From: a virus
Lineage: Duplodnaviria; Heunggongvirae; Uroviricota; Caudoviricetes
Strand: one strand, 5' to 3'
Virus record (IMG/VR): IMGVR_UViG_3300028887_000002
Span: 1 to 64,000 of that record
DNA length: 64,000 nucleotides
Shown: piece after piece, positions 11,175 through 39,401 of the stretch
How the letters are laid out: each line of letters opens with the position of its first letter
How positions within the stretch are numbered: the stretch's first letter is position 1
Program-made: the position numbers and the translations under genes
The notes under the pieces: generated by a model
What the model was told of the DNA's origin: nothing
The model's database searches: none
Seen by the model: only the letters and a program-made list of their open reading frames with translations

Positions 11175-12271
11175 CACTTAATATCCCTTATAAGTCTTAC
11201 CGCTCTATTGGCGTTTCCTTGACATATAGAACTTTGAACTGGCATAACACCGTCTGTATCAACTGATAGGTTGGGTATATTAAACCATTCAGACAAATGC
11301 TGTTCAGTAGACTTTCGGCGACACCAGTTGAAATCCATCATAATACAGTATTCTACACGTTTGTTGGTAAAGTTATCGTAAGTAAGGTTGGTAGGCCAAA
11401 CTTTCCCTGCCGCAGGCAATAGTACTGCGCCATATCGTTCCATCTCAAGCCATTCGTTATATGAATAGACATTGTCAGAATAACTCATATGAATAATTAT
11501 ACCTTTTGCTGATGCTATTGCATTTGCATATGACTTGAACTTATAACCCATTGAAGGTGTTCCATTCCAGTCGTCTGGTAACAATACTAACCCATATATA
11601 ACGCTTCCGTTGATATTTATGGTTGCAAGCCCCATATAATATTCACTTGGTTTTATCTTGTCATTAGGATTATCCAAATTGTATTGTCTAAATTCATTAG
11701 CGTTGCTCTTGTAATATCCTGTTGATTGGTTGCAAGGCCTCAGCCATTGAAGGTAATAGAGTTCCTGTTCATTGAGGCAACGCCATGAGTTTGTAATGTT
11801 TCCACCATTGATTATACGGTTGTACATCCCCCAGTCGTATCGCGGGTCGTCTCGGCGTGGCGACCGTCTGTGCGGACCGTACCCTTCGTATTCATAACCA
11901 TTCTCTTCATATTTCTTTCTTCCATACGCTGGCTTGTAGTTTATGTTGTAGTGTCCATCGTACCATCCTGATGTGCAGAAGCCAAACATATCAATCCATC
12001 CGCGATAGTTGTCAAATTCTGTAGCACTTTTAATTTCGTTTGCCTTGCCGATATACTCCCACTGATGGTCGGCGAAACGCCACTGTTTGGTTGCTGGGCA
12101 GTATTGAAGGTTGCCCTTTGAGAATACGACCTTTTCGGTGGGTGATATACTGAACTTTCCGTTAAGTTCACCCTCGTGGTTGCTGGTCGGTGCTGTCTTG
12201 TACGATACAAGCGTGAATGATATGAGCAGTAATGCTACTGCAATAAATAATGCTTTCATTGTTGCTTTCAT
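11174..12271 (-). CDS. secreted protein, Bacteroidales fimbrillin-tip / C-lectin-like fold candidate
   Basis: Signal peptide; GKFSIS..KVVFSKGNLQY..WRFADHQW..GWIDMFG; GAVLLPAAG; C-terminal AVRLIRD. Confidence 0.55.
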   Translation of the reverse strand: MKATMKALFIAVALLLISFTLVSYKTAPTSNHEGELNGKFSISPTEKVVFSKGNLQYCPATKQWRFADHQWEYIGKANEIKSATEFDNYRGWIDMFGFCTSGWYDGHYNINYKPAYGRKKYEENGYEYEGYGPHRRSPRRDDPRYDWGMYNRIINGGNITNSWRCLNEQELYYLQWLRPCNQSTGYYKSNANEFRQYNLDNPNDKIKPSEYYMGLATININGSVIYGLVLLPDDWNGTPSMGYKFKSYANAIASAKGIIIHMSYSDNVYSYNEWLEMERYGAVLLPAAGKVWPTNLTYDNFTNKRVEYCIMMDFNWCRRKSTEQHLSEWFNIPNLSVDTDGVMPVQSSICQGNANRAVRLIRDIK

Positions 12272-17382: not shown

Positions 17383-17512
17383 GCTACATTAAAAAAGGAG
17401 GTAAAATCCGTTCGACAAAGTGCAGCAAGAGCCGATAGGGACTACCTCCGTTGGTTTTATGTTTAATATCTTTCCGAATGTCTTGCTGCTTCATTCGTCT
17501 TATTAATAAATA
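17383..17512 (-). ncRNA. structured 5' leader of tnpB behind a TATTTAT motif
   Basis: Crossing stems GCAGCAAGA/TCTTGCTGC and GGAGGTA/TACCTCC followed by U6. Confidence 0.45.
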
Positions 17513-36367: not shown

Positions 36368-36412
36368 TAAAACGGGCAAGAAGTCCCCTTCCTTCGGGTG
36401 GGGGTAGTTCAT
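36368..36412 (+). mobile_element. 45-bp solo LE/RE hybrid scar of the 37832-39308 element
   Basis: TTTAA|TAAAACGGGCAAGAAGTCCCCTTCCTTCGGGTGGGGGTAGTTCAT: starts like the left end, ends like the right end. Confidence 0.85.
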
Positions 36413-36615
36413 AGTCCTAATGTTAAATCTTTCTCTTCTCCGTCATCAGTCACTATAAAAGTGCCATGATAACTTGCTACAAACAAGTCTGCTTCTACAT
36501 CGTAATAGTATGGATGATTCGTTCCAGGTCCATACTCACTCTTTGGAGTATCTGCATAGACTTTGTAATAGGTCTTGCACAACTCTTCTATCTTCTGTTG
36601 TTTCTCTATTGTCAT
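36409..36615 (-). CDS. hypothetical protein
   Basis: Ends LTLGL* with or without the scar. Confidence 0.6.
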   Translation of the reverse strand: MTIEKQQKIEELCKTYYKVYADTPKSEYGPGTNHPYYYDVEADLFVASYHGTFIVTDDGEEKDLTLGL

Positions 36616-37487: not shown

Positions 37488-37491
37488 AATT

Positions 37492-37702
37492 CTTATTTGT
37501 TTTCTTTTACATCAAGATAAATTACTTCAATATTTGGCATTCCTTCTTCATGCGGAATAGGGTCCATTTCATCATCACCAGTAGTTGGAAAAGCACCTTA
37601 TTTAGATATATCTATATTTGATGCATCGTATCTCTCAAAATTCAAATCATTATCACAAACAGTTCCGACTATTTCTACTTCTTTAATATCACTAATTTTC
37701 AT
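37492..37702 (-). pseudogene. small ORF interrupted by an in-frame TAA
   Basis: MKISDIKEVEIVGTV...IDISK*GAFPTTG...DVKENK*. Confidence 0.35.
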
Positions 37703-37750: not shown

Positions 37751-37912
37751 TTAAATATACAATTCCCAAGAAAAATTTAGTTTTCTTCCATTGTCTGTTG
37801 GAAGATGTGGTGCAGATTTAATTGCATTTAATAATACGGGCAAGAAGTCTCCTTCCTTCAGGTGGGGGATGAATTGCCCTTGGTTGATAATATCGTTAGT
37901 TATCTCTGTCAT
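37751..37912 (-). CDS. chimeric ORF: IS-encoded start fused to the 3' half of the interrupted phage gene
   Basis: MTEITNDIINQGQFIPHLKEGDFLPVL|LNAIKSAPH...WELYI; promoter at 37936-37967. Confidence 0.55.
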   Translation of the reverse strand: MTEITNDIINQGQFIPHLKEGDFLPVLLNAIKSAPHLPTDNGRKLNFSWELYI

Positions 37913-39308
37913 ATCGTTTCTTTGATTTGACGCTGCAAATATACAACGTCTTTTTGAAACCACCAAACTTTTTTTGAAAAAAATAAATATTCTTGAAATT
38001 ATATATAAATATTGTTATATTTATATATAAAACGACTTTCATTATGAAGGAACTACGAGGTTACAGGTACAGGATTTATCCGAACGCCGAGCAGTCAACC
38101 ATAATTGCACGGACAATAGGGTGCGCCCGCCTCGTATATAACCTTCTCCTTGCGGACTTCACCTCCCAACTGGGCGGCGAGGAAAAACCCAAACTCCATG
38201 AAGTGACGTACTTCAAGAAGGACAGGCCGTTCTTGTCAGAAGTGGATTCGCTTGCTTTGGCAAACGCCAAACAGAACATCCAGACCGCCCTGACCAACTG
38301 GAGCAAGTCCAGGAAAGGTCAACGCAAGGGCAAAAGGGTCGGGTTCCCGACTTTCCACAGCAAGGCGAAATCCCGCCTGTCCTACAAGACGAACAACCAG
38401 AACGGAACCGTGAGGATTGAAGGTAATTACCTTAAACTGCCGAAGGTAGGCTATGTCAAGATTGTCCTTGACAGACCACCCGCTGGCGACATACGCTCGT
38501 GTACCGTGGAGCAGACAAGGGATGGAAAGTTCTTCGTGTCCCTCTGCATGGAGGTTGAGATTGAAACGAAACAAAAGAACAAACGATATGACGACCTCAA
38601 GGTCGTGGGGGTGGACATGTCATTCCCGCACTTCTCGGTCGACTCGGAAGAAATATCTGGCGATACGAAAGCCAAGTACGTCAGGCAGTACCGTGAGAAC
38701 GAGAAAAAGTTGAAACGGCTTCAACGCTGGGTTTCAAGGAAGAACAAGGGTTCTGCGAACTACGCGAAGGCGAAGCGGAGGCTTGCCGAACTGCATGCCT
38801 ACATTGCCAACTGCCGAAGGGATTTCTGCCACAAGACGTCCCGATGGTACGCGGAGAACTGGGACGTTATTGTCCTTGAGGGCATAAACATGCAGACGAT
38901 GGCACGGCTGCACAACAACGGCAAGTCCGCCAACGACCTTGGGTTCGGGATGTTCAAGGGATTTCTTGAATACAAGTGCAGGGAGACTGATTCCATCGTG
39001 ATGTATGTGGACAGATGGTTCGCAAGTAGCAAGACCTGCCACTGTTGTGGGTATAAGAAGACCGACTTGGAATTGAGGGACAGGAAGTGGACTTGTCCGC
39101 AGTGCGGAACGCACCACGACCGCGACCTGAACGCAGCCTTGAACCTCAGGGATTATTTTTACAGGGTCGTCACGGAAGAAAACTACAATACCGCAGGGAC
39201 TGCGGGAATTTACGCCTCAGGAGAGGCGACCTCTACGTTAAGGGAAACCTTAAGGCAAGCCGCCTCATTGAACGAGGAAACCCCTTCCTTCAGGTGGGGG
39301 TAGTTCAT
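37832..39308 (+). mobile_element. IS605/IS1341-type tnpB-only element inserted 3' of TTTAA
   Basis: LE and RE share CCTTCCTTCAGGTGGGGG (37851-37868, 39283-39300); precise removal restores a 57-aa minus-strand ORF; no target duplication. Confidence 0.9.
38044..39303 (+). CDS. tnpB: TnpB RNA-guided endonuclease
   Basis: YRYRIYPN..GCARLVYN, VGVDM, IVLEGIN, SSKTCHCCG..WTCPQCG, HDRDLNAA; ATG at 38044 after TATTTAT at 38018. Confidence 0.95.
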   Translation: MKELRGYRYRIYPNAEQSTIIARTIGCARLVYNLLLADFTSQLGGEEKPKLHEVTYFKKDRPFLSEVDSLALANAKQNIQTALTNWSKSRKGQRKGKRVGFPTFHSKAKSRLSYKTNNQNGTVRIEGNYLKLPKVGYVKIVLDRPPAGDIRSCTVEQTRDGKFFVSLCMEVEIETKQKNKRYDDLKVVGVDMSFPHFSVDSEEISGDTKAKYVRQYRENEKKLKRLQRWVSRKNKGSANYAKAKRRLAELHAYIANCRRDFCHKTSRWYAENWDVIVLEGINMQTMARLHNNGKSANDLGFGMFKGFLEYKCRETDSIVMYVDRWFASSKTCHCCGYKKTDLELRDRKWTCPQCGTHHDRDLNAALNLRDYFYRVVTEENYNTAGTAGIYASGEATSTLRETLRQAASLNEETPSFRWG

Positions 39309-39401
39309 CAGTGTTTCAAAAGCAACTGTTGCCTCCATCATTCCGCACACAGTTTCATCACGAATTATCTTTGCTATATATTTTTTATCGTCTGTGGTCA
39401 T
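39309..39401 (-). pseudogene. 5' half of the gene interrupted by the IS
   Basis: MTTDDKKY...VAFETL joins LNAIKSAPH... in frame. Confidence 0.7.

Follow-up and report, generated by a model that had tools for sequence, protein, structure and literature searches.

A leader cassette with an outward promoter in TnpB elements of a rumen jumbo phage lineage and its possible role in relieving insertional polarity

The virus record IMGVR_UViG_3300028887_000002 (339,287 bp, 39% GC, terminal repeat of 127 bp) represents a 339-kb rumen jumbo phage, and its first 64,000 nucleotides, hereafter the window, contain a complete insertion sequence (IS) of the IS200/IS605 family at positions 37832-39308. The element encodes an intact ISDra2-like TnpB, has no Y1 (HUH) TnpA and is thus non-autonomous; it lies antisense within a small gene of a single long, densely packed minus-strand block. 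Between its left end and tnpB sits a leader cassette with a promoter-like site that points outwards through the left end, along the surrounding phage genes. From comparison of the copies in this genome and in related contigs, we propose that this outward promoter re-starts the downstream phage genes and lowers the cost of an antisense insertion, a reading to which we assign a probability of roughly 0.55. Contigs are designated below by L-numbers, which denote metagenome or virus contigs, several of them from related phages; assemblies of ruminant gut metagenomes yielded the closest relatives.

Two promoter classes of the phage in one leader

The leader module (37883-38029) combines an outward promoter, an ATG followed by about ten codons, and a TTATATTTATA box. 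The outward promoter-like site TTGGTGGTTTCAAAAAGACGTTGTATATTTG (37936-37966, minus strand) is of the Bacteroidota type TTG-N20-TAnnTTTG; TTG/TAnnTTTG is the primary-sigma consensus of Bacteroidota. Read leftwards as TTG-N20-TATATTTG, it is located 105 nt from the left end, matches the phage/Bacteroidota pattern over 31 nt and is conserved in seven copies, and the ATG at 37912 follows its -7 box at ~23 nt, the typical spacing of the class. The TTATATTTATA box (38015-38025, plus strand), which includes TATTTAT at 38018-38024 as the initial annotation had recorded, stands 19 nt before the ATG of tnpB and overlaps a sigma-70-like TTGAAA-17-TATATT site (37993-38021).

Both boxes had been assigned to promoter classes of the phage itself, and genome-wide counts together with the spacing to start codons verified this assignment. 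The pattern TTG-N17-21-TAnnTTTG occurs at 112 sites in the genome, compared to 33 ± 7 in local shuffles; half of them (56 of 112) fall into the 7.7% of the DNA that is intergenic, and 31 of the 51 gene-proximal sites end 20-40 nt ahead of an ATG. The class also has an extended form, TTGGyrGTTTCAAAAATA...TAtaTTTG, which is phage-specific in flavour. For the other class, TATTTAT in sense orientation lies 20-40 nt ahead of an ATG in 41 of 64 occurrences, compared to 10 of 49 for the antisense string, and one of the genes behind it carries a head-maturation-protease domain. The labels "early" for the TTG/TAnnTTTG class and "late" for the TATTTAT class are used by analogy only.

A third and unrelated promoter-like class, TGAACGTTyCAGCTTC-N10-TTATATAGATTTATG, is very uniform and precedes 17 genes. 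These are mostly consecutive and, apart from two at 12271 and 264312, located at genome positions 308900-328800 (minus strand).

The cassette is shared among otherwise divergent elements

The phage genome contains at least seven TnpB-like genes, one Y1 TnpA and five mini-elements. The leader at 37883-38029 is 73-75% identical to the segments at 293023-293171 and 338026-338171, and partially matches 266037-266119. In tblastn comparisons, the TnpBs of the 338-kb and 266-kb elements share only 28-33% identity with the TnpB in the window, and that of the 293-kb element gave no match; in addition, two of the leader-sharing elements of this genome have a left-end hairpin of another type. Alignment of seven copies revealed that the invariant columns cluster on CAAAnATA (-7) and the adjacent AACGTCTTTT, on CAAA (-33) and on the TTATATTTATA box. 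The last of these precedes tnpA or tnpB in every module copy and is retained by the more distant elements of L200 and L201 as well. The check that the initial annotation had proposed, a search for other copies with the same internal promoter segment, thus came out positive both in this genome and in related contigs.

The arrangement in autonomous relatives revealed where the cassette belongs. The 338-kb element is ordered as left end, module, tnpA (338237-338590, of a different subtype) and a tnpB that crosses the record ends, and in L131 and L132, whose TnpBs are the closest relatives (94-96% identical), tnpA likewise lies between the module and tnpB. Since the autonomous copies have the module upstream of tnpA, the promoter segment is the family leader of this lineage and no stand-in for tnpA. 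Accordingly, the outward promoter described initially is present, but not in the place of tnpA, and the copy in the window is a tnpA-less derivative.

The cassette moves together with the element and between elements. L141 carries the same tnpA-less element with the module, 95.4% identical and preceded by TTTAA; the corresponding site of this phage (157634|157635) is unoccupied, and the left flanks are 88% identical. Therefore, the module travels with the element. L188 combines the left-end type of the window copy with the module and TnpB of the 293-kb type, which indicates that the parts recombine. Evidently, a ~150-bp cassette is common to, and exchanged among, otherwise divergent IS605 elements of this lineage. 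The insertion sites differ between close relatives, hence the elements are active inside the phage lineage.

Outside this set the leader changes. L200 and L201, other large contigs with TnpBs 62-63% identical, have TTTAA, the left-end hairpin, TTATATTTATATA and tnpA, and are devoid of the ~85-nt block that holds the outward promoter and the ATG. Unrelated leaders, often with an inward TTGACT-N17-TATAAT-like site, stand behind some 50 further left-end variants from habitats such as sediments and wastewater. The module pattern around the ATG gave no match in 185,579 species genomes and none in IMG/VR by an exact-pattern search, which diverged copies could escape. By these sequence searches, the module appears to be restricted to this phage lineage. 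A separate search with the promoter block CAAAKATACAACGTCTTTT gave five IMG/VR matches, all of them Bacteroidota-type promoters that are unrelated and lack a TnpA or TnpB in their vicinity, and was set aside as uninformative on the module.

The outward promoter may relieve the polarity of antisense insertions

In the proposed mechanism, the leftward promoter would fire out through the left end, where no terminator-like structure was found on the minus strand. It would re-start the 3′ remnant of the split gene, a small open reading frame (ORF), the Thg1 gene and the following genes to ~35.7 kb. Without it, transcripts reaching these genes would have to cross 1.5 kb of antisense tnpB, a stretch with a few terminator-like hairpins on the minus strand. 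Along the minus strand from 45036 to 35632, the site at 37966-37936 is the only intergenic promoter of full consensus. An antisense insertion into a packed operon would thereby become less costly.

The orientation of the copies is consistent with this proposal. In this genome, all four module-bearing copies are antisense to their host genes and all three module-less copies are sense (Fisher p=0.029). When the antisense copy of L188 and the sense copy of L141 are included, five of the six module-bearing copies are antisense as compared to none of the three module-less ones (p=0.048). In the antisense copies, the promoter points along the surrounding host genes. The natural ATG of a 231-aa host gene follows immediately on the 338-kb copy, and in a relative free of the IS a promoter belonging to the TTG/TAnnTTTG class stands ahead of this gene; the L188 copy lies 16 nt ahead of a host ATG. 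That the left end supplies the ATG was considered for the 338-kb and 293-kb copies, and was rejected for the former, as a 94%-identical homologue begins at the same Met.

Several observations weigh against the proposed relief of polarity. In L141 the promoter points antisense into the 3′ end of a convergent host gene, indicating that the module is carried whether helpful or not. The orientation link comprises only 7-9 non-independent copies, and could arise if different transposases favour different strands. Conservation is highest in AAGACGTTGTA and exceeds there what the spacer of a promoter would require; this may point to a different function, for instance as a regulator site. Moreover, the short ORF behind the promoter is different in every copy. 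Altogether, relief of polarity by the module is plausible on circumstantial grounds. We put forward more tentatively, at somewhat less than even odds, a broader scenario in which IS605/TnpB elements of rumen jumbo phages acquired, and now shuffle, a portable "gene-start" cassette, a copy of a phage early-type promoter plus a start codon, that would enable antisense insertion without polar damage.

The short reading frame and the alternative explanations

In the window, the ATG at 37912 opens a chimeric 53-aa ORF (37751-37912, minus strand), in which 26 IS codons (MTEITNDIINQGQFIPHLKEGDFLPVL) run in frame into the last 26 codons of the split gene. The frame indeed stays open across the left-end hairpin, as had been described initially, and a gene caller predicts the 53-aa product. 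The ATG and about ten codons (MTE[IR][TI]N[DN]IIN) are conserved in five copies, and the hairpin frame QFIPHLKEGDF is open in all copies with the left-end type of the window, namely those in L141 and L188, as well as in a further copy in L133. The initial annotation had read the fusion as a built-in means to re-express the broken gene. This does not hold across the copies: the ORF of L188 ends a single base short of the host ATG, that of the 338-kb copy does not share the frame of its host gene, that of the 293-kb copy terminates within the IS after 13 codons, and that of L141 is antisense to its host gene. An in-frame host junction in one of the five judgeable copies is what a 1-in-3 chance gives, so the fusion is most likely incidental, an accident of this site. 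Furthermore, the chimera would be without the first 31 of the 57 residues of the host protein. The same model had the cassette time TnpB to late infection through TATTTAT, and in its favor this string precedes many phage genes and six of the seven TnpB/TnpA units of the genome; however, the TTATATTTATA box is kept in distant relatives on unrelated contigs and overlaps the sigma-70-like site, and it may be the promoter of the IS family itself. We therefore regard a cassette adapted both to re-express the broken gene as an in-frame chimera and to time TnpB as improbable.

A different explanation assigns the leftward promoter and ATG a function for the transposon, or regards them as a remnant. 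They could be what is left of the 5′ part of a divergently transcribed accessory gene (tnpA or an Arc-like repressor), or else a regulatory or leader unit or an operator region, and any effect on phage genes would be incidental. Divergent promoter pairs are reported between opposed tnpA/arc and tnpB in many IS605 elements (preprint 10.64898/2026.09.24.754181), and the present lineage does contain divergent tnpA/tnpB elements (L123). The MTE[IR][TI]N[DN]IIN codons and the spacer AAGACGTTGTA are conserved beyond the plain need of a promoter, and L141 keeps the module though it points antisense. However, only 30-80 nt separate the ATG from the left-end boundary, which leaves no room for a gene. 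A genome search for a full-length gene that starts with MTE..IIN behind a TAnnTTTG box gave only three IS copies, and the divergent TnpA of L123 has an unrelated N-terminus. In addition, where a copy has tnpA, this gene flanks the opposite side of the module and shares its strand with tnpB, and the extended -33 region TTGGTGGTTTCAAAAA copies promoters of the phage. Taken jointly, the forms of this explanation are unlikely. That the boxes are a chance resemblance in an AT-rich leader, with promoter activity in neither direction, is very improbable. AT-rich leaders do yield promoter-like strings, and a simple sigma-70 scan found eight sites compared to 4.6 in shuffles. By contrast, the full 31-nt pattern is threefold enriched genome-wide and position-specific, and both boxes are invariant in seven copies amid varying sequence, at the typical spacing to the ATG. 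The re-start of downstream phage genes by the outward promoter thus remains our preferred reading.

Ends, TnpB and insertion site of the element

The boundaries of the element (37832-39308, plus strand, 1,477 bp) were set by colinearity with intact alleles of the split gene. Joining the minus-strand segment 39401..39309 to 37831..37751 yields a 57-aa ORF. As the routes through neighbouring genes gave no empty allele, this joined protein was used as the query, and it retrieved intact 62-aa homologues, 88% identical, on related phage contigs. The neighbours had little to offer: the adjoining 153-aa protein has no relatives in IMG/VR, the Thg1 relatives are only ~55% identical, and a homologue of the split gene is absent from their loci. 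Megablast with 5.6 kb around the element also gave no match in the phage GenBank collection. The intact alleles are colinear over AFETL|(I/L)(K/N)AIKSAPH with no bases gained or lost, demonstrating that the insert is exactly 37832-39308 and that there is no target duplication. Both the split of a 57-aa gene by an element after TTTAA and the junction predicted for the empty allele were thus borne out by the related phage contigs. The 5′ half of the split gene (39309-39401, minus strand, 31 codons) now runs into the right end as a 63-aa ORF, and the 3′ half (37751-37831, minus strand) retains 26 codons and the stop.

The target pentanucleotide TTTAA, presumed to be also the target-adjacent motif (TAM), is located at 37827-37831 on the plus strand, immediately 5′ of the left end. 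TTTAA precedes every observed junction of this end type in the lineage, including those of the element itself, the five mini-elements, L141, L188 and L168, and TTTAA or TTTAT is dominant among 52 left-end variants of the wider family. In relatives, the empty sites at this position read TTTAT followed by CAGCGTTTCAAATGC.

The left end (37832-37879, plus strand) begins with 19 nt ahead of the hairpin CCTTCCTTCAGGTGGGGG (37851-37868), which is enclosed by an outer stem, GGGCAA/TTGCCC (37838-43 / 37874-79). The same 18-nt hairpin recurs on the plus strand at the right end (39283-39300), and the two copies are set back from the left and right boundaries by 19 nt and 8 nt, respectively; such subterminal same-strand hairpins, without terminal inverted repeats, are a feature of IS200/IS605 elements. 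It was also found at 57 metagenomic and viral loci and eight genome loci from very different taxa, which include Elusimicrobia, Asgard archaea and Bacillales. The right end, with the presumed omega-RNA scaffold, spans 39150-39308 on the plus strand, overlaps the 3′ end of tnpB and closes with the terminal hairpin and TAGTTCAT (39301-39308); five copies all end in ...GGTGGGGGTAGTTCAT|, followed by unrelated flanks.

The tnpB gene (38044-39303, plus strand) encodes 419 residues of an ISDra2-like RNA-guided nuclease with intact catalytic positions, and its GC content of ~52% contrasts with 25-35% in the surroundings. The protein matches the Pfam domains HTH_OrfB_IS605, OrfB_IS605 and Cas12f1-like TNB above their cut-offs and is close to structures of ISDra2-type TnpB (8bf8, E=1e-63). 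Alignment to ISDra2-like structures showed that the acidic RuvC positions GVD, E(G)IN and HDRD are conserved and that the zinc ribbon CxxC...CxxC is present. The stop codon of tnpB lies 5 nt before the right end, where the terminal hairpin is present and the local fold has a z-score of -1.8, which is not exceptional; no Rfam family reached its gathering score in the 64-kb window. By analogy with the TnpB mechanism of ISDra2, the right end would give rise to an omega-RNA, with TTTAA as TAM and the flank CAGTGTTTCAAAAGCA (39309-39324, plus strand, directly 3′ of the right end) as the predicted guide. TnpB with this omega-RNA would cut TTTAA followed by CAGTGTTTCAAAAGC... in element-free genomes and so favour retention or homing, as in other IS605 elements.

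Downstream of the split gene, the region at 37488-37702 (minus strand), between it and Thg1, contains a 34-aa ORF followed by coding-looking sequence in another frame (…FPTTGDDEMDPIPHEEGMPNIEVIYLDVK), which may be a frameshifted or decayed gene. In relatives, the 62-aa gene precedes genes of 133 and 150 residues.

Mini-elements and further elements in the lineage

A 45-nt mini-element lies in the window at 36368-36412 (plus strand), where it follows TTTAA and consists of 19 nt of left end, a single hairpin and TAGTTCAT; it provides the stop codon of the ORF at 36409-36615. The other four are located at 287020-287065 and 299305-299350, and on the minus strand at 206552-206597 and 297548-297593, each directly after TTTAA. 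Given five identical architectures at five different TTTAA sites, a reading as mobilised, PATE-like minis fits at least as well as one as scars of in-situ collapse.

Several other elements deserve description. The autonomous tnpA-tnpB element spans the record ends, from 337963-339287 into positions 1-688 of the window, and has the left-end hairpin CCCACGTGTTTCAACCGTGGG. It sits after TCCAT, a target whose complement includes the start codon of the next phage gene, and the 293-kb copy sits after TTCAT. At 236 kb, a TnpB element (236733-236850 and from 238150 onward) truncates a phage gene (...IEEIEVALAESRDFSYLKNLMVFNVYGL|) that is full-length in L188, and L132 appears to hold its empty site. 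At 335685-335807, a 3′ fragment of tnpA (…HLWTRGYFCGTVGVISEEKLK, minus strand) is joined to an 18-nt copy of the right-end terminus of the window element (CAGGTGGGGGTAGTTCAT), which looks like a deletion or recombination relic via a common CCACCTG. The 1.5-kb contig L133 contains at 1-205 a second, oppositely oriented element that adjoins the leader of a 79%-identical TnpB; it comprises a left end, an outward TAnnTTTG box and an ATG that is read out as MKKQNNKRRQFIPHLKEGDFFPYL|LKK..., in the frame that the window copy uses through the hairpin.

The leaders of several TnpA/TnpB units also share a perfect 8+8 palindrome, GTAATTTT-TG-AAAATTAC, directly ahead of TATTTAT. It was found at 17383-17450 of the window (minus strand), at 281380-281447 and 338138-338172 of the genome, and at 3540-3575 of L131. 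The units that bear it include both TnpB-like genes of 540-600 residues, and the palindrome could be an operator.

Comparison with known systems

In the defining features tested, the element conforms to the IS200/IS605 family throughout, except for the missing tnpA. It shares with the ISDra2/IS608 type (8bf8, 8ex9) the domains and catalytic residues of TnpB, the subterminal hairpins, insertion at a fixed pentanucleotide without target duplication, the overlap of the 3′ end of tnpB with the right end, and the coexistence of non-autonomous and hairpin-only (PATE-like) copies with autonomous tnpA-tnpB elements. By contrast, the site is TTTAA instead of TTGAT or TTAC, and the element is multiplying in a jumbo phage lineage with a lineage-specific leader cassette that has an outward promoter. 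What is unusual is this cassette of divergent phage-type promoters, with its outward arm and its association with antisense insertion, and a phage that tolerates a dozen elements. With its defined TTTAA site and guide, the TnpB is a ready candidate for TAM and cleavage assays.

Divergent tnpA/arc-tnpB regions (preprint 10.64898/2026.09.24.754181) resemble the cassette in having two back-to-back internal promoters, one of them for tnpB. However, the other promoter there serves a gene within the element (tnpA or arc), whereas here only the left end lies downstream of the outward promoter, so that its transcript must leave the element. A literature search found no paper on this arrangement.

Outward promoters in other IS families, and IStrons as a route to harmless insertion for IS605 elements, are well known. 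Insertion sequences with outward promoters, such as ISAba1 and the IS1186/IS4351 type in Bacteroides (upstream of cfiA or erm genes), switch on neighbouring genes; these encode DDE transposases, and the activation is fortuitous and takes place in bacteria. They likewise carry a promoter of host consensus near one end that reads out, in Bacteroidota with TTG / TAnnTTTG. The present case differs in that an IS605 element in a phage combines an extended, phage-like promoter with a start codon and a correlation with antisense insertion. Insertion sequences are usually rare in the genomes of lytic phages, in which nearly any insertion breaks a packed operon. If the cassette works as proposed, it would explain how this phage tolerates many of them, and it would be a compact natural promoter module for phages that infect Bacteroidota.

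The closest functional parallel would be the IStrons, in which an IS605-family element is fused to a group I intron and the host mRNA is restored by splicing (PMC4227781). Both are TnpB elements with an extra 5′ module that is presumed to make the insertion harmless to the host transcription unit. They differ in that neither a group I intron nor any other Rfam family was found in the 64-kb window, and that the remedy proposed here is re-initiation of transcription, which leaves the split gene unrepaired. If our proposal is true, TnpB elements would have, beside IStrons, a second and simpler route to neutralise their own insertions, a counterpart of IStron splicing at the level of transcription by which a transposon adapts to the genome of its viral host.

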